From: an uncultured archaeon
Lineage (GTDB): Archaea > Iainarchaeota > Iainarchaeia > Iainarchaeales > CSSED10-239
DNA: 19,460 bases
NCBI GenBank assembly: GCA_964463155.1
Contig: CAYXAY010000013.1
Location: 1 to 19,460, forward strand
Reading direction: 5' to 3'
This document shows, one piece after another, positions 225-19,460 of this stretch. The notes under the pieces are model-generated. The model saw only the letters and a list, made by a program, of their open reading frames with translations. It made no database searches and was not told the origin of the DNA. Position numbers and translations under genes: made by a program. Positions within the stretch are counted from its first letter, which is position 1, and each line of letters starts with the position of its first letter.

Positions 225-246
225 AAGGATTTCTACAGTCCTACAT

Positions 247-936: not shown

Positions 937-1061
937 ATATAGATTAAGTTTAGTAATCTATATAAATTAATATTCTAATAATTTAAATATGCGTGTATTA
1001 TAAATATTTTTGTACAATAATATACAATAATAATATATTAGTAAAAAAGGAAAGAACAAAA

Positions 1062-1868: not shown

Positions 1869-1878
1869 AACGAAAAAT

Positions 1879-3372: not shown

Positions 3373-3374
3373 TT

Positions 3375-5048: not shown

Positions 5049-5164
5049 GTGAAATGATTTTTTTCATTTCTTTTGCTTTCTTATATTCTTTGTCCATTTC
5101 TTTTAGATATCTTTTCTTAAGAGAGAAATCAGGATTAGTTATCTCCTTTAAATCAACTGACTTT

Positions 5165-5710: not shown

Positions 5711-5739
5711 AATAATCAGAATATTAAAAGAAATAAAAA

Positions 5740-6135
5740 TTATTTTTTTCTAGATATTTTTATAGTTGAACCGGCTTTAAGGTATTCTATATCAGAGCCA
5801 GCAACAAGGTCTGTAAACTCGTCCTTGTCAACTTCATATGTCTGGTAGCTAGCAGTGTCCATTATCTGATACTTGTTTCCAAGGTCTGCAATTACTTGTG
5901 CATTTCCCTTGTCAAGTATTGGTATTTCAACATCTTCTGAACTTGGCTTTAAAAGATTCATTTTCTGTCCAGTAAACACAGCGGTTGCTGTCATTCTAAT
6001 CTTTGCGGCCCCATGCTTTCCGGGCTTTGATTTAGTGATAGAATCTACCTTACAGATTACTCCATTAATCAATATAAACTGTTTTTCCTTAACTTGTCCA
6101 AGTTCCATAAACTTAATATCAAAGTCTCTTACCAT
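5740..6135 (-). CDS. eif5a: Translation initiation factor 5A (aIF5A)
   Basis: It carries the hypusine-site motif SKPGKHGAAK, is about 131 aa long, and has the SH3-like N-domain followed by an OB-like C-domain pattern. Confidence 0.93.
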   Translation of the reverse strand: MVRDFDIKFMELGQVKEKQFILINGVICKVDSITKSKPGKHGAAKIRMTATAVFTGQKMNLLKPSSEDVEIPILDKGNAQVIADLGNKYQIMDTASYQTYEVDKDEFTDLVAGSDIEYLKAGSTIKISRKK

Positions 6136-6265
6136 TGTTTTTCACCATTTTTCTTGTTAAAAAAAGCATTTTTATTATTTAAAACTATATAGTTAGGTAT
6201 AAATATATTTTAAATATGTTTTGTTTAACAAATACTATATTATATCTATATAATTTTATAAAAAA

Positions 6266-6733
6266 ATGATTATAATGCTAAAAATATTCAAATCTATATT
6301 TAAAAAAATACCAAAAGAAAACAATAGAAACAACATAGCTGTTTTTGTTGATGGTCCTAATATTTTAAGAAAAGAATTTAATATTGATATTTTTAAAATC
6401 AAAACACAATTGCAAAGAGACGGGTCATTAAAGATTGCAAGAGTCTATCTTGACCAATACGCAACAGATAAGTTAATTGAAGCAGTTGTTAATCTTGGAT
6501 TTGAGAGTATAATCACTGTCGGCGATGTTGATGTAGCGATGGCAGTGGACGCCACTGAAGCAGCATTTAGTAAAGAGATTGACACAATTGTTTTTATAAC
6601 AAGAGACTCAGATTATCTTCCTGCAATCCTAAAAGCAAAAAGGCAAGGAAAGAAAACAATAGTATATCTTGTTGAAGACGGTTCGGCAGTGGCTTTAAAA
6701 AACACAGTTGACAGAGTAGTTTTTATTAAATAG
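6266..6733 (+). CDS. NYN-domain (LabA/DUF88-like, PIN-like) protein, archaeal TIGR00288-like
   Basis: IAVFVDGPNILRKEF, VDVAMAVDA and FITRDSDYLPAI match the acidic-residue pattern of NYN/LabA ribonuclease-like domains. Confidence 0.65.
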   Translation: MIIMLKIFKSIFKKIPKENNRNNIAVFVDGPNILRKEFNIDIFKIKTQLQRDGSLKIARVYLDQYATDKLIEAVVNLGFESIITVGDVDVAMAVDATEAAFSKEIDTIVFITRDSDYLPAILKAKRQGKKTIVYLVEDGSAVALKNTVDRVVFIK

Positions 6734-6735
6734 TC

Positions 6736-6753
6736 TTTCTTGCAGACAAGAAA
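6736..6753 (+). terminator. Short hairpin directly after the NYN gene stop
   Basis: TTTCTTG-caga-CAAGAAA forms a perfect 7-bp stem with a 4-nt loop. No clear T-run follows, so any terminator function is uncertain. Confidence 0.2.
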
Positions 6754-6786
6754 ACCAAGGAAAAGAATAATTAAAAAAGGAAAAAA

Positions 6787-7287
6787 ATGAATTTGCCAGT
6801 ATTATCTCCAGTGGTAAGAAATGTTCCACTTGATAAGATAGTTTCTGATAAATTATTTTTGGATCTTTACGATAAGAAGTTTGATGGCTACATCTATTTG
6901 ACAATTGATGGCAAATACGGTTTTGAGGAAGCAATACTAATATTATCCAAAGGAAAGATTGAAGGAACAATCTACCTTATAGAGGGGCACGACATAGAAC
7001 TTATGGGAAAAGACGCAATTGGCTTTTGCTTAAATTCCTTTGGAGCAAAGAAAGGAATATTAAACATCTTTGCATTGACAGATGACCAAATAAAATTGGT
7101 TTTGCTTTTCAATGAAAAAATAAAGCACAGTTTTGCAATAAAGACCTCAAAGAACATCTCAATACTAAAGGACGCAAAATACAATGAATTATTGCTTGAT
7201 GAACTATTTAAAGACAGAATAAAAAAAGAAAAAACAACAAAAGAAATCTTAGATGATTTTAATTTAGATGATTTATTAAGGGAATAA
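6787..7287 (+). CDS. Hypothetical protein resembling PATAN/DUF4388- or DUF2226-type domains
   Basis: FDGYIYLTIDGKYGFEEAILILSKGKIEGTIYLIEGHDIELMGKDAIGF follows a pattern I associate with these domains: hydrophobic-G-Y-hydrophobic, then G-x-I, then G-x-x-A-hydrophobic. This is a recognition-level call only. Confidence 0.35.
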   Translation: MNLPVLSPVVRNVPLDKIVSDKLFLDLYDKKFDGYIYLTIDGKYGFEEAILILSKGKIEGTIYLIEGHDIELMGKDAIGFCLNSFGAKKGILNIFALTDDQIKLVLLFNEKIKHSFAIKTSKNISILKDAKYNELLLDELFKDRIKKEKTTKEILDDFNLDDLLRE

Positions 7288-7289
7288 AA

Positions 7290-7736
7290 GTGAAAATAAT
7301 GAGCGCAATATCAAAACTGTTTGCAACGCTATCAACAAAGATACTTAATATAGAGGACAGAAAACAGGAAAACTCAATAGCAACACTATTGATTTACAAA
7401 CCAATATTCATACATTCTTCTGACCTTACTGATTTCTTGCAAAAATTAAGGTTGAAACATTTAATCAATGATATAATCATCACAGACCTAGACGGCGTTG
7501 TTGTAGGAAGCACAAACAAGGACACAAAGGAGGGGTTTAAAAGCGCAGCTCTTTACAATTACATAAATTCAGAGATAAACGAGCTGTCAATAATCCTTAT
7601 CGAAGCAAATGGTTGGCAGATAATTTTAAAAAACGAAGACAAGGTTTATTTCATTAAGGCAAATGATGGCTTGTCAAGACTAGAGGTATTAACAATAGTC
7701 AAGGAAATAGAGAATTTTATAAAATGTATTGTATAA
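7290..7736 (+). CDS. Roadblock/LC7 (MglB-like) domain protein
   Basis: LINDIIITDLDGVVVGSTNKDTKEGFKSAALYNYI matches the core Roadblock/LC7 pattern (hydrophobic strand, D-G, hydrophobic-hydrophobic-x-S, acidic loop, AA). The start is either GTG at 7290 or ATG at 7299. The gap after the upstream gene is 2 nt. Confidence 0.5.
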   Translation: MKIMSAISKLFATLSTKILNIEDRKQENSIATLLIYKPIFIHSSDLTDFLQKLRLKHLINDIIITDLDGVVVGSTNKDTKEGFKSAALYNYINSEINELSIILIEANGWQIILKNEDKVYFIKANDGLSRLEVLTIVKEIENFIKCIV

Positions 7737-7779
7737 CATTATATTTGATTTTTTTAATATATTATAAGTGTGAAAAACA

Positions 7780-8577
7780 ATGGGAGAAATTTTTGCAATA
7801 GTCTCTGGGAAAGGAGGCGTTGGTAAAACTACATTTACAGGAAACCTAGGAATAGCTTTTTCAGAGATGGGATATTCCGTATTATTGATAGATGCAGATC
7901 TAGCAATGGCTAATCTTAGTTTGCTTATGGGTTTAAAGACTCCGCCAATAACTATTCATGATGTTTTATTAGGTTCTGTCCCAGCAACAGACGCCATTTA
8001 TGATTGCGCTAAGGGAGTAAAGATAATCCCAGCAGGTCTTTCAATTTCCTTTTATACAAGGGCAGATGTTGAAAGATTAGTAGCAATAACAAAAGATTTG
8101 CAAAAGAAATTTGACTTTATATTGATAGACTCTCCAGCAGGTATTGAAAAGAACGTAATAGCTGCAATGTCTGCATCCTCTCAAATTCTGTTAATCACTG
8201 AGCCAACTGTTCCATCTGTTGCAGACGCGTTTAAGGCAAAAATTGTTGCCCAAAGACTAAATCAAAGGGTTCTTGGAGTAATAATCAACAAACACAGTGG
8301 CATAAAAGGAGAGATATCTGAGCAAGAAATCATGAAGATGCTTGAGCTTCCATGCTATGGTAAGATTCCATATTCTGATGATATAAGAGAATCATTCCTG
8401 CTTAAGAAAATAAAGCCATTACTGGCACATAATCCAAGTAGTCCTGCAGCAAACTCATTTAGAAGCATCGCAAGAAAGCTAAGTGGGAAAGAGGTTGATG
8501 TTTTAAAGACAGAAAAGAAAGGGCTGTTTGCAGGTTTCTTTCAAGTATTAAGAAGTATATTAAGAAAGAAAAAATAG
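7780..8577 (+). CDS. minD: MinD/ParA-family P-loop ATPase (archaeal MinD type) with a C-terminal amphipathic tail
   Basis: It has the deviant Walker A SGKGGVGKTT and the motifs LLIDADLAMANL and ILIDSPAGIE. The C-terminus is KKGLFAGFFQVLRSILRKKK. Confidence 0.88.
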   Translation: MGEIFAIVSGKGGVGKTTFTGNLGIAFSEMGYSVLLIDADLAMANLSLLMGLKTPPITIHDVLLGSVPATDAIYDCAKGVKIIPAGLSISFYTRADVERLVAITKDLQKKFDFILIDSPAGIEKNVIAAMSASSQILLITEPTVPSVADAFKAKIVAQRLNQRVLGVIINKHSGIKGEISEQEIMKMLELPCYGKIPYSDDIRESFLLKKIKPLLAHNPSSPAANSFRSIARKLSGKEVDVLKTEKKGLFAGFFQVLRSILRKKK

Positions 8578-8629
8578 AAAAGAAAAAAAGGAGAAAAAGA
8601 TTTTTTTAATATATAAAGGAGAAAAAAAT

Positions 8630-8860
8630 ATGAATGAAATAAAAATATCAAGACCGTTTGACATGCTGAATAATTCACTAAACAAGCAAGTGTTAATCAT
8701 GCTTAAGGGAAATATTTCTGTAAGAGGAAAACTAAAAGCATTTGATGTCCACTTAAATGTTGTTTTAGAAGACGCAGAGGAAATTGAAAATGGAAAGCCA
8801 AAGGCAAAGTATATTGAGGTTTTCTTAAGAGGAGATAATGTAATATTAGTTACAATTTAG
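8630..8860 (+). CDS. Sm-like archaeal protein (SmAP/LSm)
   Basis: The Sm1 block is VLIMLKGNISVRGKLKAFDVHLNVVLEDAEE and the Sm2 block is VFLRGDNVILV. An SD-like aaaggag lies upstream. Confidence 0.9.
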   Translation: MNEIKISRPFDMLNNSLNKQVLIMLKGNISVRGKLKAFDVHLNVVLEDAEEIENGKPKAKYIEVFLRGDNVILVTI

Positions 8861-8912
8861 TTCTTTTAAATTTCCTTAATTTTCTTTTCTAAAATAAAAA
8901 ATATTGTGTAAC

Positions 8913-9872
8913 ATGACCGGAATCATTTTAGATATTTATTTTGGGGGGGAATTAGCAGAGACCCTAACATCAAGCTCAATAATAGTAAAGATATTTACAT
9001 TAACTAATTTAATCTATTTTGGAGTTTTTATATTTTTGATACTTGGGATATCAATATTGGTGTTTGCAATATTGCCAAGGGTATTAAAGACTCCTGAAAA
9101 ATACTTCAAAAGATACCTGTTGGTAAGAGAAGAACTTGAAAGGATAGACAATCTCTACTCCCGTAAAAAGATGTCTTATGAAGATTATTCTTTTGCCCAA
9201 TTCCATTACGCAAAAGAATATGAACAGATTATAATCTATCTTTCTAATTTTCCTGAATATAAAAGCAAACTGCAAAGCTACAAGCTAACTGCTGTAAAAG
9301 TAAGAGAAGACCAGGAATCCAAACTAAGCCCGGAACAAATTAAAAATCTAGAGACCACAAACTATTTCTTTGACTTATTAAAGCCTCGCGCTCCATATTA
9401 TCAAAAAGGAGAAATATATCAAGCAATACTAGATGAAGGCTATAACAAAGAAATAGCAAAAGGCATTGTAGATAAACTGGATGCTAGCGGAGTAGAGTTC
9501 GATAGCAAAGAAAAAGAAGGAGAGCGTAGGGTCATTGATTTGGTTGACACAATAATTGCTGCAAGGCAATCAATGGCACCAAAGAAAGTTATTGACAATA
9601 AGTCAAAGCCAATAGAGACCGCAAAACCATTAGAGAGCGCAAAGACAAGCATGGACCTTAAAGACCTTGCAAAACCAAAAACGCAAGAACCAAGCTTTGG
9701 AGAAAACACAACAACATTTTCCAAGTATTCTGATTACAGGCTTGTAAAAACCAAAAAGACATTTATTGAATCAATAAAACATATCTTTAAGCCAAAAGAA
9801 AAACCACATACAATTTCTGAGATAAACGATATCTTTAAGGATATTGAAAAAACTATAAAAGAGAAGAAATAG
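8913..9872 (+). CDS. Hypothetical membrane protein with an N-terminal TM region and a long charged, lysine-rich cytoplasmic part
   Basis: The hydrophobic segment is IYFGVFIFLILGISILVFAIL. I recognised no family. I prefer the ATG at 8913 over the listed TTG at 8904. Confidence 0.55.
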   Translation: MTGIILDIYFGGELAETLTSSSIIVKIFTLTNLIYFGVFIFLILGISILVFAILPRVLKTPEKYFKRYLLVREELERIDNLYSRKKMSYEDYSFAQFHYAKEYEQIIIYLSNFPEYKSKLQSYKLTAVKVREDQESKLSPEQIKNLETTNYFFDLLKPRAPYYQKGEIYQAILDEGYNKEIAKGIVDKLDASGVEFDSKEKEGERRVIDLVDTIIAARQSMAPKKVIDNKSKPIETAKPLESAKTSMDLKDLAKPKTQEPSFGENTTTFSKYSDYRLVKTKKTFIESIKHIFKPKEKPHTISEINDIFKDIEKTIKEKK

Positions 9873-9920
9873 TTTTTTCAAAAACCAGCATTGAAAAACT
9901 TTAAAATAAAAATAGTTTTT

Positions 9921-10073
9921 TTAATTTTTTGATCTCACCAACAATATAAGCCCGATGATTATAAGTATCAACCCAAGATAAAGATTAATAGCAGATAATG
10001 GAACAGGAAGAGAAGGGATATAAAGCCCAATTCCAACACCTAAAAGAATACCACCAACTAAACTTTGACTCAT
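9921..10073 (-). CDS. Small (50 aa) two-TM membrane protein, below the ORF-track size cutoff
   Basis: My own translation of the minus strand gives MSQSLVGGILLGVGIGLYIPSLPVPLSAINLYLGLILIIIGLILLVRSKN-stop. AAGGTGG lies 6 nt upstream of the ATG. The ORF occupies an otherwise empty 286-nt gap. Confidence 0.45.
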   Translation of the reverse strand: MSQSLVGGILLGVGIGLYIPSLPVPLSAINLYLGLILIIIGLILLVRSKN

Positions 10074-10158
10074 TTTTTCCACCTTTTTAAATATAGTAAA
10101 TACAATAAATATATATTGCTTTGTTTTTAAATATATATGCTACAATAAATAGATAACC

Positions 10159-10884
10159 ATGAAATCATATTTGGGTTTTGGATTGTTTGATGTCCTAATC
10201 AAAGGAAAACTTGACAAAAAGCCAGACACGCTATTTATGAGTGAACTGGTCGATTTTTCCAAAGATAACAATATCGATTTGTTCTTGATAACTGGCCTTG
10301 ACAAAGAAAACGGCCAAAAGCTGGTTAAAGAACACGGTATTGATTCTTATTTTGACAATAACAAAATATATCATATAGAGCAAAGCTATTCTGATAGCCT
10401 TTCAGAAATCGACAAAGAAATAAAAGAACAAGCAAGAGAAAAAGACCCTAACTACTGTGATGAATATTACAAGGTTTATTTCTTTAATAACCTTTACAAA
10501 CAAGCAAAAGAAAACACGTTATTTCTTGGACACGACATCTGGACCGACGCCTATTATTTATCTAAATACGCAAACATCGATGTCATCCTTCTAAAAGACA
10601 CCCTTTCAAACAACCACAGCCCTCACTTAATTGAGATAAAGGACTTACATATCATCGGTCCTACATTTGAAGTAATAAAGGAACATCTAGAAAAAGAAAA
10701 AAAATTTAACTTTGAGCCTCTTAACAACTATGCAAACAAGCAATTGTATAAAGAGATGATTGGTTCAAACATGTTAAGCACAAGTAATGCGATAGGCCGC
10801 GTCTTAAGCAAACATCAAGAAAAGACAGCTTTTAAAAAAAATAATAAAGATTATTATGAAGATAAAAAAAATAAAGGCAATTAG
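10159..10884 (+). CDS. HAD-like fold protein with a degenerate motif I (hypothetical)
   Basis: GLFDVLIKG stands in place of hhhDxDGTL, so the second Asp is missing. LFLITG looks like motif II and LGHDIWTDAYYLSKYANIDVILL looks like motif IV. The 3' end overlaps the eno start by 29 nt. Confidence 0.35.
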   Translation: MKSYLGFGLFDVLIKGKLDKKPDTLFMSELVDFSKDNNIDLFLITGLDKENGQKLVKEHGIDSYFDNNKIYHIEQSYSDSLSEIDKEIKEQAREKDPNYCDEYYKVYFFNNLYKQAKENTLFLGHDIWTDAYYLSKYANIDVILLKDTLSNNHSPHLIEIKDLHIIGPTFEVIKEHLEKEKKFNFEPLNNYANKQLYKEMIGSNMLSTSNAIGRVLSKHQEKTAFKKNNKDYYEDKKNKGN

Positions 10885-12085
10885 AATTTTGGACTCCAGA
10901 GGAATTCCAACAATAAGGACTTTTGTTTACACAAACAATGCTGTAGGGATAACTTCTGTTCCATCCGGAACAAGCAGTGGAAAAAGAGAAGCAGTAGAGC
11001 TAAGGGACTTCACAAAAGCCTTTAATGGCAAAGACGTTACAAAAGCAATAAACAATGTTGACAACAAGATTTCAAAAAAATTGTTTGGAGAGTTTGTTCT
11101 TGACCAAAACAAGATTGACAAAATTTTAATAGAGCTTGACGGAACAGAAAACAAATCAAATCTTGGCGCTAACGCCATTCTTTCAGTAAGTCTTTCCTGT
11201 GCAAAGGCTGCTGCAATAGAACTAGGAACCCCACTACACACTTATCTTTCAAGATTAAACAATAATTCTAAACAGAAAATGCCAACACCATTGCTAAACA
11301 TAATTAATGGTGGAAAACATGCAGGAACAGATTTGGCTTTTCAAGAGTTTCAAATAATTCCAAAAAAGAAAAATATTTCAGAAAATCTAAAAGCGTCTTG
11401 TGAAACTTACCAAACACTAAAAGAAATAATAAAACAGAAATATGGCATGAGTGCAACAAATGTTGGCATGGAGGGGGGCTTTGCGCCAAATATCAAAGAC
11501 CCAAAACAAGCACTTGACCTTCTAGAAAAAGCCATTGAAAAATCAGGTTATAAAACTGAAATGACTATAGGTCTTGATGTTGCAGCAAGCGAAATCTATT
11601 CATGTGGCAAATATACGATTGCAGGAAAAAAATATTTATCAAGCGAAATGATTGATTATTATTATAATCTTTTAAAAAGTTACAAGATAACTTCAATTGA
11701 AGACCCATTCTCTGAAGACGACAACCCCACATGGATTGAGTTTACAAAGAAGTTTTCAAACAAGATTAATATTATTGGTGATGATCTTTTAGTAACAAAC
11801 CCAAAACTAATAAAAGATGCAATAAGAAAAAAAGAATGTAATTCTCTTCTTCTAAAGCCTAACCAAATAGGAACATTAACAGAAAGCATTGATGCATATA
11901 ATCTAGCAAAAAAAGCAGGCTGGAAAACAATAGTATCTCACAGGTCAGGAGAGACAGAAGATGTTTTCATTGCGGATTTGGCTTATGGCCTTGGTAGTGA
12001 TTTTTCTAAGTTTGGAGCTCCAACAAGAAGCGAAAGAACAGCAAAATACAACAGATTATTGGAGATAGAAGCCCAAACCATGTAA
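10856..12085 (+). CDS. eno: Enolase (phosphopyruvate hydratase)
   Basis: Conserved blocks present: ILDSRGIPT, VPSGTSSG, QEFQIIP, EGGFAPN, GLDVAASE, IEDPFSEDD, GDDLLVTNP, LLLKPNQIGT and SHRSGETED. All catalytic and metal-binding positions I can recall are present. Confidence 0.95.
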   Translation: MKIKKIKAIRILDSRGIPTIRTFVYTNNAVGITSVPSGTSSGKREAVELRDFTKAFNGKDVTKAINNVDNKISKKLFGEFVLDQNKIDKILIELDGTENKSNLGANAILSVSLSCAKAAAIELGTPLHTYLSRLNNNSKQKMPTPLLNIINGGKHAGTDLAFQEFQIIPKKKNISENLKASCETYQTLKEIIKQKYGMSATNVGMEGGFAPNIKDPKQALDLLEKAIEKSGYKTEMTIGLDVAASEIYSCGKYTIAGKKYLSSEMIDYYYNLLKSYKITSIEDPFSEDDNPTWIEFTKKFSNKINIIGDDLLVTNPKLIKDAIRKKECNSLLLKPNQIGTLTESIDAYNLAKKAGWKTIVSHRSGETEDVFIADLAYGLGSDFSKFGAPTRSERTAKYNRLLEIEAQTM

Positions 12086-12182
12086 TTTTTTAAAGTTAAC
12101 AATTTACGAAACATTTAAAAAACAAATATTATATAAATTTATTTATAGTACATATATTAAAGAAAAAAAATGTGATTAATTT

Positions 12183-13028
12183 ATGCCAAAAGATATGGGA
12201 GATGATTTCGGAGCAGACTTTGATGCTCGTACAGAAAAAAAATCATTTGGGAATGCTGGTTTTAAATGGGAAACAATATTGCCTGTGATAATAATAATAG
12301 TTGTTATTTTATTAATTGTTTTTAAGACAAACATTCTAGCAAGCGGTTCAGCTTTGTTTGGTACAACTCAAGGAGCAAGGATTCTAGTTCTTGGAGCACC
12401 AAGCCAAGAGTTTAGATCAATACTAAATGACCAAGAAAACAAAGACCTAATAAAACAAACGGCATATATGACCTTAGAGGCAATAGAACATAATCCTGCG
12501 GAAAGAATTAAAGGTTACGATTTAATTATTCTTGACCAATCATTGCAAACAGACAAATCAATATCAAGAAGATCAGCAGATGCTATAACAAATTATGTTA
12601 AAAGAGGTGGAAAATTGATTGTTGTCCTCAACTCTGGAGTTAAAAGACCTGGCGATAAATCCGTTCTTGGTTGGACAGCAAATTTTGGGAACATTGTTCC
12701 AGTAAGGTGTGACAAGGTTGGTTCAGTGCCATCATGTTTAGGTCCAAGAGATCTTCAAGGAAAATTATTTGTTGTAATGGAGGACCATCCAATAATGAGA
12801 GGAATCACACAGGTTCCTGCAGTTGAAACAAGTGGTCCAATAAGAACAACAACCTTTGATGTTGCAGTAGACGGTAAAGAGATTGCTTTCTTAGAAGATA
12901 ACATAACAAAAAAGACTTACACAGGGATTGTTGAAAAGCCGTTATTGATGGGTAAAGTAATTTATTTCAATTTCAATCCTGCAATAAGTAAAGCGATTGT
13001 TATAAACACAATCAAGTATCTAAAGTAA
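12183..13028 (+). CDS. Hypothetical N-terminally membrane-anchored protein with a class-I glutamine-amidotransferase-like (ThuA/DUF1355-like) fold
   Basis: The TM segment is WETILPVIIIIVVILLIVF. This is followed by RILVLG...GYDLIILDQSL...ITNYVKRGGKLIVVLNSG, a pattern typical of non-catalytic GATase1-like modules. Confidence 0.35.
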   Translation: MPKDMGDDFGADFDARTEKKSFGNAGFKWETILPVIIIIVVILLIVFKTNILASGSALFGTTQGARILVLGAPSQEFRSILNDQENKDLIKQTAYMTLEAIEHNPAERIKGYDLIILDQSLQTDKSISRRSADAITNYVKRGGKLIVVLNSGVKRPGDKSVLGWTANFGNIVPVRCDKVGSVPSCLGPRDLQGKLFVVMEDHPIMRGITQVPAVETSGPIRTTTFDVAVDGKEIAFLEDNITKKTYTGIVEKPLLMGKVIYFNFNPAISKAIVINTIKYLK

Positions 13029-13054
13029 ATTTACTTTATATTTTTCTTTTTGAG

Positions 13055-13088
13055 CCGGTTACGCTCAGCTCGCGCGCAACTGGTTTTT
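13055..13088 (+). terminator. GC-rich hairpin followed by a T5 run, downstream of the 12183..13028 gene
   Basis: CCGGTT (13055-13060) pairs with AACTGG (13078-13083), including one G-U pair, and TTTTT follows at 13084-13088. The 32 nt at 13052-13083 contain 22 G/C in an otherwise AT-rich spacer. Confidence 0.35.
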
Positions 13089-13163
13089 CTATAACATTTA
13101 TAAACTGAATTATTCATAAATTATATAACAATAATATTTTCCCGTTAATACTGCTTTAAGGCA

Positions 13164-13170
13164 GGAGGTG
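13164..13170 (+). promoter_or_regulatory. Shine-Dalgarno-like GGAGGTG in front of the rpl1 TTG start
   Basis: GGAGGTG lies 8 nt upstream of the TTG at 13179. It is preceded by the small hairpin CTGC-tttaag-GCAG. Confidence 0.55.
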
Positions 13171-13178
13171 CTAAGATT

Positions 13179-13850
13179 TTGGATAAGAATATAACAGAAA
13201 AACAGGTCGTTGAAAAGGCGTTAAACGAATTAATGTCTATTTCAAAGAAAAGGAATTTTGATGAAGCAATCGAAATGGTTGTAACATTAAAAAACATAAA
13301 CACGAAAAACAAAGACCAAAGAATAGAATATGCAGTTAATCTACCACACCCTTATCTAGACACAGTTAAATCCCTAGTTTTTGTAAAAGATAAAAATCTT
13401 GCTTCAGAACTAAAGGGGGTTGTTGACAAGGTTGTCATGGATGAAGAGATCGCTAAGCTTTCTAAAAAGGATGCAAAGAAAATGGCAGATGAGTATAAGG
13501 TGTTTTTGGCTGAAGGACCGGTTATGCTAACAGTTGGTAAGCACTTAGGACAGGTTCTTAGTCCTAGAGGAAAAATGCCGATGATTGCTCCGCCGAATGT
13601 CAATGCAATAAAGACATTAATCACTGCAACAGTTTCACAACAAAAAATATCCAATAAGAAAAACAAATCATCAGTGGCTTTACAAATAAAAATCGGGAAA
13701 AAGAGCCAAGGTGTTTCAAACTTAACAGATAATTCTTTAGTTGTAATCAAATCATTGATTGATAGATTGCCAGCAGGTTTACAAAACATAAATCACATCT
13801 ATATCAAGTCAACAATGAGTAAAAGTATAAAAATGGGCGATGACAAATGA
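13179..13850 (+). CDS. rpl1: Large-subunit ribosomal protein L1 (uL1), TTG start
   Basis: AIEMVVTLKNIN...RIEYAVNLPHP and GKHLGQVLSPRGKMP match uL1 blocks. The gene heads the L1-P0-P1 operon order. It ends in an ATGA overlap with the next gene. Confidence 0.9.
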   Translation: MDKNITEKQVVEKALNELMSISKKRNFDEAIEMVVTLKNINTKNKDQRIEYAVNLPHPYLDTVKSLVFVKDKNLASELKGVVDKVVMDEEIAKLSKKDAKKMADEYKVFLAEGPVMLTVGKHLGQVLSPRGKMPMIAPPNVNAIKTLITATVSQQKISNKKNKSSVALQIKIGKKSQGVSNLTDNSLVVIKSLIDRLPAGLQNINHIYIKSTMSKSIKMGDDK

Positions 13851-14602
13851 ATCACACAAAATCATGGAGACTTGCACAATATGATGAGATTAGTAAGTTA
13901 GTTTCACAATATAAAATAATTGGTGTTGCTGACCTTAAAGATTTTCCATCTAATCTTTTACAAAAGGTTAAGAAAAATGTTGTTGATGCAACATTCAAAG
14001 TTACATCAAAGAATGTTTTAAAGAAAGTACTAGAGGCAAAAGGCCACAAAGATATTGTTGAAAAACTACCTACTCAACCAATATTGATCTTAACAAACAA
14101 AAACGCCTTTGAGCTGTATGCTGCAATAAAGAAAAGTAAAGCTAGGTCAAAGGCAAAGATTGGAATGATTTCCCCAATAGACATTATCGTTTCAGAAGGA
14201 GACACAGGTCTTCCACCAGGACCAGCATTATCTGATTTAAAGAAGGTTGGGATTAAAGCCCAAGTTAGAGGAGCAACAATCTTTGTTCCAAGCGATACAG
14301 TTATAGCTAAAGCTGGAAGCGTTATTAACAGCGACATTGTCAGTACTCTTTCAAAGCTAGACATAAAACCAGTAGAGTTGGTATTAACTGTTGTTCTAGT
14401 AAAGGAAGACGGAATGATATATAACAAAGATGTTCTTGACATTGATGCAAACACAATAATCATGCAGATTGCTACAGCGACAAGACAAGCAGTAGGGCTT
14501 GGTGTAGAGATTGGTTACATCTGTAAAGACACAGTTGAGCCAATGATAGAAAAAGCAGAAAGAGAGGCTAAAGCACTTGATGCTTTAGTAAATAAGGAAT
14601 AA
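13847..14602 (+). CDS. rplP0: Ribosomal stalk protein P0 (uL10), short form of 251 aa without an acidic C-terminal tail
   Basis: The N-terminus WRLAQYDEISKLVSQYKIIGVADLKDFPSNLLQKVKK matches archaeal uL10. The position between L1 and P1 supports the call. The protein ends ...EREAKALDALVNKE. Confidence 0.88.
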   Translation: MNHTKSWRLAQYDEISKLVSQYKIIGVADLKDFPSNLLQKVKKNVVDATFKVTSKNVLKKVLEAKGHKDIVEKLPTQPILILTNKNAFELYAAIKKSKARSKAKIGMISPIDIIVSEGDTGLPPGPALSDLKKVGIKAQVRGATIFVPSDTVIAKAGSVINSDIVSTLSKLDIKPVELVLTVVLVKEDGMIYNKDVLDIDANTIIMQIATATRQAVGLGVEIGYICKDTVEPMIEKAEREAKALDALVNKE

Positions 14603-14618
14603 TTAAGAGGTGTGAAAA

Positions 14619-14909
14619 ATGGATTACATATATGCAGTTTTGTTATTACACAAAGCAAATAAAGAAATAAACGAGGCAAACTTAAAGTCTGTCTTAACTT
14701 CAGCAGGAGTCTCATCTGATGACGCAAAATTAAAGGGTCTTGTTGCAACATTAAAGGACATAAACATTGAAGACGCAATAGCTAAAGCGTCAGTAGTTGC
14801 AGCAGTGCCAGCAGCAGCATCAAGCCACGAGACAAAGAAAGAAGTTCACGAAGAGCCAACAGTTACTGAAGAGTCAGCAGCAGAAGGTCTAAGTGCATTG
14901 TTTGGTTAA
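14619..14909 (+). CDS. rpl12: Ribosomal stalk protein P1 (archaeal L12)
   Basis: The N-terminus is MDYIYAVLLLHKANKEINEANLKSVL. An Ala-rich hinge and an acidic tail follow, ending in the canonical EGLSALFG. The SD-like sequence GAGGTG lies upstream. Confidence 0.93.
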   Translation: MDYIYAVLLLHKANKEINEANLKSVLTSAGVSSDDAKLKGLVATLKDINIEDAIAKASVVAAVPAAASSHETKKEVHEEPTVTEESAAEGLSALFG

Positions 14910-14940
14910 ACCAAACAATTTTTTATTTTTTTATTTTATT
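14900..14940 (+). terminator. Operon-end hairpin plus long T-rich tract
   Basis: GTTTGGT-taa-ACCAAAC (14900-14916) is a perfect palindrome enclosing the rpl12 stop codon. It is followed by aattttttatttttttattttatt, which resembles archaeal oligo-T termination signals. Confidence 0.5.
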
Positions 14941-15021
14941 TAAGTATATTTCTATTTTTAAGTTCCGCACTGGACATCTACCCTCCCGGAAACAACCCGT
15001 CTTTCTTACAAATATATATTT

Positions 15022-16023
15022 ATGAAGTCAAATATCATTCCAGATGATTATTTAATAACGTTAAATAAAATTAAAGAAAAAATAAAGGCTGCACAAATTA
15101 AATCAGCAATTTATGTTAACACAGAATTAATATCTTTATATTGGAATATCGGCAAAATAATTTCTGAAAAACAAAAAAACTCAAATTGGGGGGATTCTGT
15201 AATTTTAGAATTATCTAAAGATTTAAGTAGAGAATTTCCAAATATGAGGGGATTTTCCAGAACAAACTTATTTAATATACGTAAATTTTATTTGTTTTAT
15301 TTTTCCCAAAATAATGAAAAAGTCCAACAGCTTGTTGGACAATTGCCTTGGGGGCACAATATACTAATTATTAATAAAATCAAAAACCATTCAGAAGCTC
15401 AATTTTATATTACAGAAACCCTAAAAAACAACTGGTCAAGAAATGTTTTATTAAATCAAATAGATAATAACTTATATCACAGATCTAACAAAGTTATAAA
15501 TAACTTTAATAACACGTTGCCAAAAATACAATCAGAACTTGCCATTCAAACAATAAAAGACCCTTCTATTTTTGATTTTTTAGATATTACTAGTAAATCA
15601 AAGGAAAGGCAACTAGAAAATCAATTAATAGAAAATATAACCAAATTTCTTTTAGAATTAGGAACAGGGTTTGCATATGTCGGCAGACAATATCATTTAG
15701 AGGTAGAAAATGAAGATTTTTATATTGATTTATTGTTTTATCATTTGAAATTAAGGTGTTTTGTTGCAATTGAATTAAAAACCGGCAAATTCAAACCAGA
15801 ATATGTAGGCAAGCTAAATTTTTATTTATCAGCATTAGACAGAATTAAAGATTCACAAGATAATCCGGCAATTGGTTTAATTTTATGTAAAGAAAAAAAT
15901 AAAATAATTGTGGAATATACTTTAGAAAATATATCTAAACCGATAGGAGTATCTCAATATAAGTTTTCAAAAGAAATAATAAAGAATTTACCCACAAAAG
16001 AAGAGCTAAGAAAACTAATATAA
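15022..16023 (+). CDS. YhcG/DUF1016-family PD-(D/E)XK nuclease
   Basis: The N-terminal helical part is ELISLYWNIGKIISEKQKNSNWGDSVILELSKDLSREFPNMRGFSRTNLFNIRKFY. The C-terminal nuclease core is FYIDLLFYHLKLRCFVAIELKTGKF, which carries the D...E-x-K arrangement. Confidence 0.8.
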   Translation: MKSNIIPDDYLITLNKIKEKIKAAQIKSAIYVNTELISLYWNIGKIISEKQKNSNWGDSVILELSKDLSREFPNMRGFSRTNLFNIRKFYLFYFSQNNEKVQQLVGQLPWGHNILIINKIKNHSEAQFYITETLKNNWSRNVLLNQIDNNLYHRSNKVINNFNNTLPKIQSELAIQTIKDPSIFDFLDITSKSKERQLENQLIENITKFLLELGTGFAYVGRQYHLEVENEDFYIDLLFYHLKLRCFVAIELKTGKFKPEYVGKLNFYLSALDRIKDSQDNPAIGLILCKEKNKIIVEYTLENISKPIGVSQYKFSKEIIKNLPTKEELRKLI

Positions 16024-16130
16024 GTTAAAGAGAAAGAAACCATTCTATAAATCTAAAATCCTCTAGTCAAGATAGTTTTTTAAATATTTGAAACAATAGT
16101 ATATATTATAACTCTAAGATTGGCATTAAC

Positions 16131-16529
16131 ATGTACGAAAAAGAAAAGCAGAAACTTAAAACACTAATTGATGATTTTAGATTCAATTATCAAAAATATA
16201 AGTCCTATTCTGAAGCAGATATTGAGACTAAGATTGTTGAAGATAGCTTAAAGTGATTTGTTGTGGGAGTAAATATTTTTAGTTTAGTTATAGAAAAAAT
16301 AGAACTACACATTCACGATTGGCAAAAAGGACGAATTTTAAACCAAATTGAAAAACTTGATAACTTAATTAGACATTATCAAATTACAATTAATTCTCCT
16401 AAATTCACAAATAATTCTATTGGAGTTAATTCTTCCGAATCAATTAAATTTATGGAGAATAATTTAAATGATAAATTAAAAGAAAAAGAATATTTAATGA
16501 AACAATTAGAGTTAATTTCTAGAAAATAA
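16131..16529 (+). pseudogene. Remnant of a restriction-modification-type gene (N-terminal region of a type IIG/type I-like methylase or restriction enzyme), with an in-frame TGA at 16254-16256
   Basis: An unlisted 41-codon ORF at 16131..16256 reads MYEKEKQKLKTLIDDFRFNYQKYKSYSEADIETKIVEDSLK-stop. It resembles the N-termini of RM enzymes, which show the pattern F..N...YKS..Y.EA......I.....K. It is in the same frame as the listed GTG-initiated ORF 16263..16529, separated only by TGA-TTT-GTT. Confidence 0.35.
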
Positions 16530-16536
16530 GAAAATT

Positions 16537-18093
16537 ATGTCAGATTTTGTAGAACATCCGTTTGTTAAGAAAGAAACAATTCAAAAAAGGCTTTACCAGG
16601 AGCTTTTGACAGCTGAAGCAATCAAGCAAAGCACACTCGTGGTTGCCCCAACCGGTCTTGGTAAGACAATCGTTGCTGTGCTTTTGATTGCTTACATATA
16701 TAATCCAAAGAAATCAATAATCTTGTTGTCTCCAACAAAGCCATTAATTGCTCAGCACAAGAAAAGTATTCTAAAGTTCTTAGAGATTCCAGAAGACAAA
16801 GTTATTCTCTTGACTGGAGAAATCCTCCAAGAGAAAAGAAAAGCCTTTTATGAGGGGCAAGGTCTAGTGATATGTGCAACCCCTCAAACCATTCAGCATG
16901 ACCTAGAAAAAAAACTATTAAATCCAAAAAACTTTAATCTTGTTATCTTTGATGAAGCACACAGAGCAGTCGGCAGTTACTCTTATACTTTTATTTCTCA
17001 ATATTTTTCTGAAGACACCAAGAGACTTGGTTTAACTGCATCTCCTGGGGCATCAAAAGCAAAGATTCAAGAGGTTGCTGATAATCTTGGAATACCTCAT
17101 GTAGAGATAAGAACTGAAAAAGATATAGATGTTAAAGATTATGTTAATGATATGGAGGTTGATATAAAGTTTTTAGAGCTTGATGTTCTTTCAAAGGAGA
17201 TTTCAAAAACAATAGACAACTACATTCAAAACAAAATTATTCTTCTTAGAAAGCTTGGAGCACCAATACCAAGCAACTACACAAAGAAGCAGATTATTGC
17301 TATTCAAGCTTCGTTGTTTGAAAGAGTCAAGAGAGTAAAAAACAATACCTGCTTTATTGCAATCTCAACAATTGCTTCTGTTCTGAAATTTCTTCATGCT
17401 AAAGAACTAATAGAAACTCAAGGCTTTTTTCCAACAAAAACCTATCTTCTAAAATTAAAATCAGAAAGTCAAGAGAATAAATCAAAAGCGCTTACCGCAA
17501 TTATTAATTCTTCAGAGTTTGTAGAAGTTCTAAAACTTCTAGAGAAAGCAAAAACCAAAAGATGTGCAAAGGAAATTGTGCTAATTGATATTGTTTCAAC
17601 TTTTATGAAAGAAAACCCAAAGTCAAGAATTCTTGTTTTTAACAACTACAGGGATAATGCCAATCACTTAGTGGAAGTATTAAATGCAGAAAAAAACATA
17701 AAAAGCACACGATTTGTTGGACAAGCTAGCAAAAGTATTTCTGATAAAGGATTATCACAAAAAGACCAAGCAAAGATTATTTCTGATTTCAAGGATGGGA
17801 AATACAATATTCTAGTCTGTACTTCTGTTGGCGAAGAGGGCCTTGACATTCCGTCTGTTGATCTAGTGGTTTTCTATGATGCCGTTGCATCTGAAATAAG
17901 ACACATTCAGAGGCGTGGCAGAACAGGACGGTTTAATTTTGGCAAAGTCATCTTGCTTCTTAACAAGAACACAATCGATGAAAAATATTATTTTGTTTCT
18001 CAAAACAAGGAAAAGAAAATGAAATCAATTCTAAAGAATTTCCACAAACCAGAGAGAAAGAGAAAAGAACAAAAAAAGATTTGTGATTATTAG
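16537..18093 (+). CDS. hef: Hef-type SF2 helicase (Hef/FANCM/XPF-family helicase domain only)
   Basis: RLYQELL...VVAPTGLGKT (Walker A), FDEAHRAVG (DEAH at 16951-16962), LGLTASPG, a helical insertion between the RecA lobes, VCTSVGEEGLDIPSVDLVVFYD and QRRGRTGR. The ORF stops after a short basic linker and contains no nuclease domain. Confidence 0.85.
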   Translation: MSDFVEHPFVKKETIQKRLYQELLTAEAIKQSTLVVAPTGLGKTIVAVLLIAYIYNPKKSIILLSPTKPLIAQHKKSILKFLEIPEDKVILLTGEILQEKRKAFYEGQGLVICATPQTIQHDLEKKLLNPKNFNLVIFDEAHRAVGSYSYTFISQYFSEDTKRLGLTASPGASKAKIQEVADNLGIPHVEIRTEKDIDVKDYVNDMEVDIKFLELDVLSKEISKTIDNYIQNKIILLRKLGAPIPSNYTKKQIIAIQASLFERVKRVKNNTCFIAISTIASVLKFLHAKELIETQGFFPTKTYLLKLKSESQENKSKALTAIINSSEFVEVLKLLEKAKTKRCAKEIVLIDIVSTFMKENPKSRILVFNNYRDNANHLVEVLNAEKNIKSTRFVGQASKSISDKGLSQKDQAKIISDFKDGKYNILVCTSVGEEGLDIPSVDLVVFYDAVASEIRHIQRRGRTGRFNFGKVILLLNKNTIDEKYYFVSQNKEKKMKSILKNFHKPERKRKEQKKICDY

Positions 18094-18117
18094 ATCCATT
18101 TATAAGCTCAACTTATC

Positions 18118-18140
18118 TTAAGTTATTTAGAATAAATTAA
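18118..18140. promoter_or_regulatory. Imperfect inverted repeat upstream of the TA cassette (candidate operator or promoter)
   Basis: TTAAGTTATT-tag-AATAAATTAA has 10-nt arms with 1 mismatch. A second small palindrome, ATAAG-ctcaa-CTTAT, lies at 18102-18116. AAGGTGG (SD) follows at 18144-18150. Chance palindromes are common in AT-rich DNA. Confidence 0.25.
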
Positions 18141-18154
18141 AATAAGGTGGCATA

Positions 18155-18424
18155 ATGTTAGAGAAAACAGTAAATGTTAATCTCAAGATATCTGATTATT
18201 CAAATAGAGTGCTAGGCGTAGTTAAAGAAAAATATGGTTACAAAGACAAGTCTCAAGCTCTTGATAAATTGATGAATATGTATGGAGAAGAGTTCGTTGA
18301 AAAAGAAGTTAGAGATGATGTTGTTTTAGAAGTTATAGCAGAAGTAGAAAAAATGAAAAAGCAAAAATTAAAACCAATGTCTATAAAAAAATTAGATGAA
18401 TTGTGCGGTATTTCCAAAAAATAA
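18155..18424 (+). CDS. Type II antitoxin, ribbon-helix-helix / DUF2683-like
   Basis: VNVNLKISDYSNRVLGVVKEKYGYKDKSQALDKLMNMY follows the strand-helix-helix pattern and resembles archaeal DUF2683 proteins. Its stop directly abuts the toxin ORF. Confidence 0.6.
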   Translation: MLEKTVNVNLKISDYSNRVLGVVKEKYGYKDKSQALDKLMNMYGEEFVEKEVRDDVVLEVIAEVEKMKKQKLKPMSIKKLDELCGISKK

Positions 18425-18715
18425 GTGACAAATATGTCCTTTGAATTTAATTTATCCCAACAAGTTATAGACCTAATGACACAATTACAATCTAAAGATA
18501 AGCAATTACTTTTGGAGTTAAATAAAAAAATAAAGCAAATAATTGATTGTGATGAATATACGATTAATCACTATAAAAACATAAGATATAATCTTTCTGA
18601 TTACAAATGTGTGCATATTGGTAAATCGTTTGTTTTACTATCTTCTGTAGATATACAAAATAACAAAATTTATTTTGTAAAGTTTAATCACCATGACAAA
18701 ATATATCCACGATAA
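18425..18715 (+). CDS. RelE/ParE-superfamily toxin (mRNA-interferase-like)
   Basis: FEFNLSQQVIDLMTQL...KKIKQII...HYKNIRYNLSDYKCVHIGKSFVLLSSVDIQNNKIYFVKFNHHDKIY matches the RelE-fold sequence pattern. The start is either GTG at 18425 or ATG at 18434. Confidence 0.65.
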   Translation: MTNMSFEFNLSQQVIDLMTQLQSKDKQLLLELNKKIKQIIDCDEYTINHYKNIRYNLSDYKCVHIGKSFVLLSSVDIQNNKIYFVKFNHHDKIYPR

Positions 18716-18718
18716 ATT

Positions 18719-19390
18719 ATGCCTCAAAAAATTAAGATTGTTTGTGATACTCGCGAAAGAGTAAGCCACATCACCAAGGAGCTTTTATCTTTAAGCAATG
18801 ATTCTTTTGAGGTAGAAGTTATTGTTGAGCAGTTGTCTCTTGGTGACTATCAGCTAAGTAATGATGTCTTGATTGAGAGAAAAACCATGGCAGATTTAGA
18901 ATCATCAATCATCGATGGGCGAATCTTCTCTCAGCTTGATAACCTTTCAGAGAAGGTGTCAAAACCAGGTCTGATTGTTGAAGGAATGATCAATCATTCA
19001 GACAATGATAACCGAATTAACAATAAGTCTCTAATTGGCTTAATAACTTCAATAGGCCTTAACTACAGAATCCCAATCTTTTTTACTAGAAATCAAAAAG
19101 AAACAGCGTTGTTTCTTTATGTGATTGCTAAAAGAGAGCAGTATGGTATCAAAGGAACAGAACGAAAGCACAGGTTTAGCAAGAACAAGATGTCTTTTTC
19201 TGATCAGCAGCTTTTTATCTTAGAGTCTTTTCCAGACATTGGTCCGACTCTTGCAAAAGCCCTTTTAAAAAAGTTTAAAACCATTAAAACCATTTCTCAA
19301 GCAACAGTTAAGGAGCTTCAAGAAGTAGAGAAGATGGGCCCAAAAAAAGCAGAGAAGATGTCTTATCTTTTCTCAAGGGTGTTTGATTAG
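18719..19390 (+). CDS. XPF/Hef-type ERCC4 nuclease domain with a C-terminal (HhH)2, encoded as a stand-alone ORF
   Basis: IVCDTRE, GDYQLSNDVLIERKTMADL (ERK at 18875-18883) and IIDGRIFSQL are present. The C-terminal region FPDIGPTLAKALLKKF...ELQEVEKMGPKKAEKM forms two helix-hairpin-helix motifs. The start lies 3 nt after the toxin stop. Confidence 0.85.
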   Translation: MPQKIKIVCDTRERVSHITKELLSLSNDSFEVEVIVEQLSLGDYQLSNDVLIERKTMADLESSIIDGRIFSQLDNLSEKVSKPGLIVEGMINHSDNDNRINNKSLIGLITSIGLNYRIPIFFTRNQKETALFLYVIAKREQYGIKGTERKHRFSKNKMSFSDQQLFILESFPDIGPTLAKALLKKFKTIKTISQATVKELQEVEKMGPKKAEKMSYLFSRVFD

Positions 19391-19460
19391 CCTTTGTTTA
19401 ATTTTTCTAAAATCAAAAGAAGCTTTTATTTTTCTTCTGCAGTCTTTTTATGTTTTTCAA

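Follow-up and report, generated by a model that had tools for sequence, protein, structure and literature searches.

How does a repair enzyme that elsewhere is a single protein come to be encoded by two genes with a toxin-antitoxin (TA) pair between them? This question is raised by a locus in a 19,460-nt stretch of DNA from an uncultured archaeon (contig CAYXAY010000013.1 of GenBank assembly GCA_964463155.1, positions 1 to 19,460, hereafter the window), where the helicase and the nuclease of Hef occupy separate open reading frames (ORFs). Enzymes of the Hef/FANCM family are usually studied as single polypeptides. A preliminary description of the window, made from the sequence alone, had recognized the two Hef halves and the TA genes in the gap between them, took the arrangement to be a functional split rather than decay, and offered two origins: a TA module that inserted into hef and split it, or a lineage with already separate halves that acquired one. 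We consider it likely that Hef underwent fission once, at a motif resembling the PCNA-interacting protein (PIP) box, that the junction later became a slot for cargo genes, and that the TA pair is a facultative passenger, being neither the cause of the split nor a requirement for it.

The two halves of Hef and their distribution

Four co-oriented ORFs are tightly packed on the plus strand of the window in the order hef helicase, antitoxin-like gene, toxin and hef nuclease. The ORF list of the window confirmed both their previously given coordinates (Table 1) and the gap of 625 nt that separates the hef halves. In comparison with the NCBIfam Hef equivalog NF010337, the helicase matched model positions 2-515 of 781 (565 bits, E = 2e-169) and the nuclease matched positions 569-777 (205 bits, E = 2e-60), while positions 516-568, corresponding to the linker, were unmatched by either half. 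Each half alone falls short of the equivalog cut-off of 610 bits. Membership of the helicase in another superfamily 2 (SF2) family would have spoken against its assignment to Hef; the best non-Hef helicase family of NCBIfam scored at most 73 bits, compared to 565 bits for Hef. In Pfam, the helicase ORF matched ResIII/DEAD, the Hef-type helical insertion (RNA_helicase_helical) and Helicase_C, and the nuclease ORF matched ERCC4 (E = 2.5e-26), HHH_5 and HHH_2. Among the systems in PADLOC, the nuclease had no defence-system match and the helicase only generic SF2 matches. The catalytic motifs of both halves, previously described as intact, were read in the translations: APTGLGKT, DEAH and QRRGRTGR in the helicase, all invariant in 48 clade members, and VCDTRE, GDY and ERKTMAD in the nuclease. 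The QRRGRTGR motif stops 53 residues ahead of the helicase stop codon.

Judged by these profile matches, both ORFs are true halves of Hef, as had been proposed. They share with the canonical fused Hef of euryarchaea (Pyrococcus furiosus type, NF010337) the helicase, the insertion domain, a PIP-like element, the ERCC4 domain and the tandem helix-hairpin-helix domain, (HhH)2, in the same order and with the same catalytic motifs. However, the canonical enzyme is one polypeptide, whereas here it is encoded by two ORFs, and the whole clade is alike at this locus. The nuclease half also resembles the short crenarchaeal-type XPF (NF040956), likewise a free-standing nuclease of about 220 aa with ERCC4 and (HhH)2 domains, but it would stem from the fission of Hef and not from the short-XPF lineage. 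Its score with NF040956 is 130.8 bits, under the cut-off of 300 and below its score in the Hef region (205 bits). In a comparison with short XPF, no C-terminal PIP-like motif was evident by eye in the last residues of the window nuclease (...EKMSYLFSRVFD).

A homologue search in 5.8 billion proteins, with the window helicase as query, yielded about 50 clusters at 56-100% identity, all of which are helicase-only (514-544 aa). Fused Hef proteins (727-825 aa) were encountered only at 47% identity or lower, and an exact-protein look-up gave no entry on record for the window helicase itself. Gene neighbourhoods were taken from exact look-ups and from scanning GTDB genomes and metagenomes, and every locus, denoted below by an L number, was classified. 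The helicase and nuclease genes are separate, co-oriented and adjacent in the 28 clade loci that reach far enough downstream, and they reside in a conserved order of genes: enolase, ribosomal L1, L10 and P1, hef, a minus-strand gene, and S8e. The 138 more distant loci include 122 fused and 6 split ones, with the remaining 10 lacking a nuclease or running off the contig. In a neighbour-joining (NJ) tree, the loci with split hef form a monophyletic clade (bootstrap 100). According to source names and GTDB titles, the close relatives are Iainarchaeota/Diapherotrites, a DPANN group, including the complete genome of Ca. Forterrea multitransposorum. Because separate and adjacent halves recur in 28 loci with conserved synteny, and because the split clade is monophyletic, the adjacency of helicase and nuclease is not coincidental, and the unlinked genes in relatives that would have pointed to coincidence were not what we found.

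The same architecture occurs across dozens of independent assemblies from NCBI, JGI, ENA and Logan. The ratios of nonsynonymous to synonymous substitution rates (dN/dS) range from 0.02 to 0.30 over all four genes, with 0.02-0.10 for the antitoxin and 0.12-0.30 for the toxin; these values are rough, as dS is saturated, and they indicate that all four genes are under purifying selection. Altogether, about 50 helicase clusters, 28 resolved loci and this range of dN/dS bear out the initial view of a functional split.

The break point and the content of the junction

When the concatenated halves were aligned to the nearest fused Hefs, the split protein amounted to 741 aa in the window and 741-753 aa in the split clade, compared to 746-757 aa in fused proteins with short linkers. 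On this alignment essentially no linker is missing from the split Hef. The helicase ORFs end at, or at most two residues from, a conserved Q-x-x-[LI]-x-x-[FY] element, which in the window is the heptapeptide directly before the stop codon (Table 1). The pattern Q..[LIMV]..[FYW] was found in the last 16 aa of 41 out of 48 split helicases, being exactly C-terminal in 32, whereas it occurred in one of 1498 control windows from the same 48 proteins. In fused Hefs, the corresponding QxTLxxF/Y element aligns just upstream of the nuclease domain, mostly 9-11 residues before D.RE, and lies within 40 residues upstream of the nuclease motif in 96 of 122 proteins.

The significance of such a tail is suggested by the helicase-only Hef of Thermoplasma acidophilum (taHef). 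Rohleder et al. described taHef as a helicase entity alone, equipped with a C-terminal PIP-box, and its last seven residues mediate the binding of PCNA with a dissociation constant of 1 uM (PMC4838364). The window helicase resembles taHef in being an SF2 helicase of the Hef/FANCM type, about 510-520 aa long, that ends with Q-x-x-[IL]-x-x-[FY] after a flexible basic stretch; unlike taHef, it keeps its cognate nuclease as a separate gene directly downstream. By analogy, we infer that the conserved element is the PIP-box of that study (PMC4838364) and that the tail of the window helicase binds PCNA. The tail had earlier been called basic and linker-like. It is indeed basic, but it is not a mere linker remnant and ends in the PIP-box-like motif.

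Outside the clade, five intact splits were detected. The helicases end, immediately ahead of their stop codons, in QRDLDEF and QRNLDDY in two Aenigmatarchaeota (L031 and L034), QKQLVDF in Methanocellales (L024), QKTLDQW in one unassigned contig (L175) and QSNLSDY in Methanomassiliicoccales (L068). None of these five has cargo in the junction, which is a gap of 51-64 nt or, in L175, an overlap. Other split calls in metagenome-assembled genomes (MAGs) look like frameshifts or hold runs of N (L037 and L157). All five intact outside splits thus leave the same motif at the helicase end and lack cargo, which suggests that Hef has been divided repeatedly, and preferentially, directly behind the PIP-like motif.

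In contrast to the regular break point, the content of the junction is variable among close relatives. It is empty in six loci (L003, L113, L099, L100, L011 and L107), where the halves overlap as TAATG (L003) or are separated by 2-6 nt, or by 48 nt in L100. A TA pair alone occupies the junction in the window, L001/L096, L004, L009/L010, L092 and L176; the junction is exactly 625 nt long in the window, L001, L004 and L009. A gene of about 150 aa belonging to DUF5680 is the only cargo in 12 loci, including Ca. Forterrea, whereas L101 and L102 contain DUF5680 followed by the TA pair. This family (Pfam PF18931, E = 1e-30 to 1e-34) was thus assigned in 14 junctions (e.g. L006 7618-8079, L012 7590-8050 and L101 5572-6030), and it is located upstream of the TA pair whenever both occur. 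DUF5680 had no match in PDB, PADLOC or PHROG, and its function was not found in the literature. Empty and TA-bearing junctions are found in sister loci of the NJ tree (L003/L097 with bootstrap 96 and L099/L092 with bootstrap 100), and L104 with DUF5680 only is sister to L102 with DUF5680 and TA (bootstrap 100). A comparison with relatives had been proposed to distinguish the two origins, and it gave a clear distribution: hef is split clade-wide, while the TA pair is present in some relatives and absent in others.

Some junctions retain marks at their borders. In L001, and identically in L096, an exact direct repeat of 14 nt, TAAGTGATTATTAA (L001 7544-7557 and 8170-8183), borders the TA cassette on both sides. 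The left copy coincides with the 3' end of the helicase gene, stop codon included, and the right copy holds the toxin stop (TGA), overlaps the nuclease ATG and recreates TAATG. The window cassette shows only a degenerate version of this repeat. In the DUF5680 loci, an AGTGAT(T/A)TTAA-like copy of the last helicase codons stands right before the nuclease ATG; such a remnant may have arisen by duplication of the helicase end, or it may just be a ribosome-binding site (GTGAT). As for oligo-T tracts, which like the TATA-like box below were read directly from the sequence, the window junction contains no run of five or more T, while four such runs lie within 70 nt past the nuclease stop.

Two lineages of the clade depart from the common arrangement in their nuclease half. 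In L111 (1423-2760; also L110 and L014), a divergent TA pair (antitoxin of 80 aa, toxin of 94 aa) comes after the helicase, the minus-strand neighbour and S8e come next, and the nuclease gene is absent from the hef locus. Such an arrangement may be a step towards a helicase-only Hef. In L005, which bears DUF5680, the nuclease ORF (8129-8782) begins with MPLLFYQSFPLF... and lacks the N-terminal xCDxRE, whereas GDY...ERK...D and the HhH domains are intact. This could be an eroded half or a local assembly problem.

The toxin-antitoxin pair and its surroundings

The toxin is assigned to the RelE/YafQ superfamily by profile and fold. It scored 48.7 bits (E = 9e-13) with the NCBIfam YafQ family TIGR00053, below the cut-off of 87.25, and 14.5 bits with TIGR02385, for which the cut-off is 27.9. 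No Pfam toxin family matched the window protein; its more distant homologues P0136-P0138 carry PF05016, PF15738 and PF15781, and homologues are named YafQ or RelE by JGI. PHROGs gave a weak RelE-like match for the toxin and nothing else. Single-sequence searches of PDB with the toxin gave nothing meaningful, and only a profile of the 16-member toxin family matched, over the full length, Helicobacter pylori HP0892 (E = 2e-5). The AlphaFold model has a mean predicted local distance difference test score (pLDDT) of 87, and the top 50 PDB matches of this model in Foldseek are all RelE/YafQ/YoeB/HigB/ParE toxins, with template-modelling (TM) scores up to about 0.8. The model thus places the toxin, as predicted, in the RelE-like alpha/beta fold. 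Residues K48, R51, H61, H87, D88 and Y91 are invariant in the family, and both conserved histidines align with those of HP0892. The start chosen for the toxin, the ATG (Table 1), is the one that agrees with relatives.

Less can be said of the antitoxin from profiles. The ORF of 89 aa had no Pfam match, and in particular DUF2683 (PF10884) gave none at E<=10. Its family contains 52 homologues, with NCBI names that include 'DUF2683 family protein' and 'antitoxin', and 6 of 32 family members match Pfam DUF2683 weakly (best E = 0.0046). The label 'DUF2683-like' used in the preliminary description therefore holds for the names of some homologues but not for a Pfam match of the window protein. Nothing meaningful was found in PDB with the single sequence, and a literature search returned nothing relevant on the function of DUF2683. 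The AlphaFold monomer (pLDDT 70) has helices compatible with a ribbon-helix-helix (RHH) fold; no Foldseek match was significant (best E = 0.35), and the weak ones are mostly RHH proteins.

The pairing of the two genes is regular. The antitoxin gene is directly upstream of the toxin gene in all 11 pairs compared, including a free-standing pair among tRNA-synthetase genes (L091), whose toxin and antitoxin are 55% and 45% identical to those of the window, and the same order is kept in a second free-standing pair, L178. In the latter the toxin was missed by the gene caller, and a PCNA gene is located two genes away (L178 3510-5425). The upstream region of 61 nt is conserved in all TA-bearing hef loci as well as in L091, and comprises a TATA-like box, two inverted repeats and a Shine-Dalgarno-like motif. 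Palindromes are present in every copy; for instance, L092 has arms of 16 nt with 94% complementarity. This region would function as promoter and operator of the module. The C-terminus of the antitoxin and the N-terminus of the toxin fall into two co-varying types among the window, L001, L009, L092 and L097. In type 1, an antitoxin ending ...LDELCGISKK goes with a toxin beginning MSFEFNLSQQVIDLMTQLQSKDKQ, whereas in type 2 an antitoxin ending ...ELNKFFESCKK goes with a toxin beginning MPF.S.LS..LKE.IKKLYSKDK. The spread of these types departs from the helicase tree, and their co-variation is the pattern expected of co-evolving cognate TA interfaces.

Taken together, fold, profile and pairing bear out the earlier claim that the gap holds a RelE-like toxin with its antitoxin, and the two ORFs form a credible type II TA pair of the RelE/YafQ type, presumably toxic and autoregulated. 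Neither TA protein had a defence-system match in PADLOC. Like the DinJ-YafQ module of E. coli and the modules of the H. pylori toxins HP0892 and HP0894, the pair consists of a small upstream antitoxin gene abutting a toxin of roughly 90 aa with a RelE-like fold; the His...His-x-x-x-Tyr pattern of HP0892 aligns with that of the window toxin, and a palindrome lies between a promoter-like box and the start codon, as in type II RelE/YafQ modules. Unlike those modules, the window antitoxin belongs to an archaeal DUF2683-like family without a solved structure, and the toxin scores under the YafQ cut-off. Moreover, those modules are scattered, whereas the one described here resides inside a DNA-repair operon at one conserved site clade-wide.

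Two further loci concern the toxin family. In L093 (1393-2238), the distant toxin homologue P0136 (40% identical) and a partner of 71 aa overlap the start of a LigD_N (3'-phosphoesterase) gene; the association of the toxin family with LigD_N and PCNA genes may be coincidental. A toxin-nuclease fusion of 317 aa called in L177 (2631-3584) was rejected as a gene-calling artefact, since its DNA is identical to that of L176 and the TGA stop is present; a genetic code in which TGA is not a stop was probably applied in that call.

Elsewhere the window has the usual content of an archaeal chromosome, with genes for the alpha and beta subunits of phenylalanyl-tRNA synthetase (PheRS), aIF5A, an NYN-domain protein, a ParA/Mrp ATPase, enolase and the ribosomal proteins L1, L10 and P1. 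The DNA is AT-rich, with a GC content of about 0.32. No tRNA was found in the window by ARAGORN, and no RNA family of Rfam matched. Upstream of hef lies a window-specific insertion (Table 1), which has a GC content of 0.24-0.26 compared to 0.32-0.37 in its flanks. Its larger gene matched YhcG_C and DUF1016_N in Pfam and the candidate system PDC-S02 in PADLOC (E = 2.5e-141), and its two small ORFs (41 and 88 aa) had no family match. L001 and L003 lack the insertion, and L004 and L092 have other genes at that spot. It is not part of the hef/TA unit and marks a second variable intergenic spot of the operon region.

Table 1. Features of the hef locus and its upstream insertion in the window (positions on the 19,460-nt stretch)
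Feature	Position	Strand	Description
Window-specific insertion	14910..16536	+	1.6 kb; YhcG/DUF1016 PD-(D/E)XK nuclease gene and two small ORFs, between the ribosomal P1 gene and hef
hef helicase half	16537..18093	+	518 aa; SF2 helicase with insertion domain, basic tail, then PIP-box-like motif
Dimorphic helicase segment	17047..17571		helicase residues 171-345; insertion 'thumb' domain
PIP-box-like motif	18070..18090	+	QKKICDY; last seven codons of the helicase gene
Putative TA control region	18094..18154	+	TATA-like box, inverted repeats, Shine-Dalgarno-like motif
TATA-like box	18099..18106		TTTATAAG
Inverted repeat	18110..18124		AACTTA/TAAGTT
Inverted repeat	18123..18145		TTATTT/AAATAA
Shine-Dalgarno-like motif	18145..18149		AGGTG
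Antitoxin-like gene, DUF2683-like	18155..18424	+	89 aa; probable N-terminal ribbon-helix-helix, predicted variable C-terminal toxin-binding tail
Antitoxin C-terminus, co-varying	18356..18424		two types
RelE/YafQ-superfamily toxin	18434..18715	+	93 aa from ATG; alternative GTG start 18425 gives 96 aa
Toxin N-terminus, co-varying	18434..18505		two types
hef nuclease half	18719..19390	+	223 aa; ERCC4 nuclease plus (HhH)2; ATG 3 nt past the toxin stop

Order of events and meaning of the split

Before the order of events can be weighed, the mosaic nature of the locus has to be considered. The TA tree conflicts with the helicase tree, and an earlier reading of this conflict, in which the TA cassette moved independently between two helicase subclades, was withdrawn, as these subclades reflect a single dimorphic segment of the helicase (residues 171-345). 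This segment is 84-85% identical to the window in L001, L003, L097 and L098 but 52-56% identical in L004, L009, L092, L099 and L100, while helicase residues 1-170 and the L1, L10 and P1 proteins are 83-93% identical in both sets (L10/P1 at 75-77% in L092, L099 and L100). The conflict between the trees shows recombination in the region and not a mobility specific to the TA module, and the dimorphic insertion domain could represent an old allelic polymorphism or recombination. The insertion domain of these helicases is said to determine substrate specificity.

We favour an order in which the split came first and the cargo later. The clade is split whatever the state of its junction (empty, TA, DUF5680 or both), other phyla have splits at the same residue without cargo, and the TA pair is an autonomous module with its own control region that is also free-standing in L091 and L178; for these reasons the already separate halves probably acquired the TA. 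Of the two origins first offered, acquisition by an already split lineage is therefore favoured, and a TA insertion is not supported as the cause of the split. Since the L001 repeat takes in the stop codon of the helicase and restores TAATG, the cassette would have entered a junction that was split and overlapping beforehand; the repeat also offers a route to clean loss of the cargo.

The proposed scenario would run as follows. A single fission of Hef in the ancestor of the Iainarchaeota/Diapherotrites clade, directly after the PIP-box-like motif at the helicase/linker boundary, would have produced a helicase with a C-terminal clamp-binding motif, i.e. the taHef architecture, and a stand-alone ERCC4-(HhH)2 nuclease. 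The primitive junction would be an overlapping or near-overlapping stop/start (TAATG) suited to translational coupling, by which cargo-free relatives may still produce both halves. The junction would then have served as a slot for self-contained small genes (the TA module, DUF5680 or both), with the TA module bringing its own TATA-like box, operator-like palindrome and ribosome-binding site, and cargo would be gained, lost and exchanged by recombination within the mosaic locus. In the window, the helicase with its PIP-like tail and the dimeric nuclease half would be made as separate proteins from one operon and presumably cooperate, while the TA pair would persist as a passenger, a conventional autoregulated type II module. 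As a likely side-effect, the nuclease gene, located so close to the toxin stop, would also be transcribed from the putative TA promoter.

Several observations weigh against this scenario. Both deep branches of the clade have TA pairs at the junction, always in the same order and including the L111 pair with 36% toxin identity, so that the cargo is old and might in principle date back to the split itself. The NJ trees are simple, the locus is a recombination mosaic and dS is saturated, and the polarity of gains and losses is accordingly not rigorous. Of the cargo-free splits in other lineages, L024, L175 and L068 are each known from a single MAG or metagenome contig and may have arisen through misassembly. 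The age of the cargo lends some weight to the reverse order, in which one or more mobile genes (TA, DUF5680 or both) inserted into the linker of a fused hef, made the split, and left empty junctions only where they were cleanly deleted. Cargo is found in every major branch with DUF5680 always ahead of the antitoxin-toxin pair, the TA tree roughly tracks the deep clade structure, and empty junctions are nested among cargo-bearing sisters; the L001 repeats could have mediated precise excision, and the copy of the helicase end before the nuclease ATG in DUF5680 loci would fit an insertion scar. We nevertheless regard this order as unlikely, given that the five outside splits break at the identical residue without cargo, so that fission needs no insertion, that the L001 repeat points to a target split beforehand, and that the DUF5680-locus remnant is ambiguous in reading also as a ribosome-binding site.

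The cargo could also be more than a passenger. If the TA pair, and likewise DUF5680, acted as regulators or accessory subunits, the TA promoter, repressed by the antitoxin-toxin complex and released under stress, could drive the nuclease independently of the helicase. The constant length of 625 nt of the cassette in four divergent lineages, the purifying selection on it, the 3-nt spacing between toxin and nuclease in a junction lacking a terminator-like T-run, the retention of the module at a single position despite divergence of the flanking genes to about 60% identity, and the weak associations with repair genes (LigD_N beside P0136 and PCNA near the L178 pair) would all agree with such a role. 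The main counterpoint is that the close relatives L003, L113 and L099 do without the cassette, with no sign of compensation in their hef halves; in addition, the same TA family and control region stand free among unrelated genes, no defence-system profile matches, and long residence can be explained by addiction together with linkage to strongly selected genes. We hold such integration to be quite improbable. Least credible of all is a pseudogenized hef or an assembly or frameshift error with small ORFs arising by chance. The low GC content does make spurious ORFs common, the other MAG splits (L037 and L157) do resemble errors, and the nuclease is gone from the L111 locus and N-terminally eroded in L005, but identical architecture in dozens of independent assemblies, catalytic motifs invariant across 48 helicases, dN/dS well below 1 for all four genes and a confidently folded RelE-like toxin model effectively refute it.

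The elements of the proposed scenario are largely familiar: helicase-only Hef with a C-terminal PIP-box, stand-alone XPF nucleases, RelE/YafQ TA modules and split genes of DPANN archaea are already known. Gene splitting among DPANN archaea has been described, e.g. for Nanoarchaeum equitans (PMC6349945; PMC3655853), and as in those cases the fission of Hef is at a domain boundary in a reduced genome; in contrast, the Hef halves stay adjacent and enclose a junction with variable cargo. Hef is not named as a split gene in PMC3655853 or PMC11237513, and no paper describing a split Hef with junction cargo was found. As far as the searchable literature shows, the clade-wide split of Hef into adjacent genes, the regular break point across lineages and the use of the junction as a slot for TA and DUF5680 genes are new. 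A split Hef with cargo represents a genuine, if modest, variant of known biology and does not overturn the current understanding.

If the TA pair were functionally integrated after all, a constitutive fork-remodelling helicase would become a stress-gated helicase-plus-nuclease, with the TA domesticated as a switch of a repair enzyme, made possible by the fission, and DUF5680 would serve as another accessory in the same slot. The clade-wide and maintained split is a natural experiment on the need for a covalent link between helicase and nuclease, and it bears on the role of the PIP-box. The same break was found in at least two, possibly five, other lineages, and every split found leaves the motif at the helicase C-terminus. 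Fission thus seems to favour one point and may have led from fused Hef to a helicase-only Hef of the Thermoplasma type, a transition for which the lineages with an absent (L111) or eroded (L005) nuclease are possible intermediates within the clade. The TA module itself has stayed at a single position within the operon over deep divergence, and close relatives differ in its presence and in its alleles; the TA pairs of the hef junction are thus a tractable case for studying why such modules persist in the tiny genomes of DPANN archaea.

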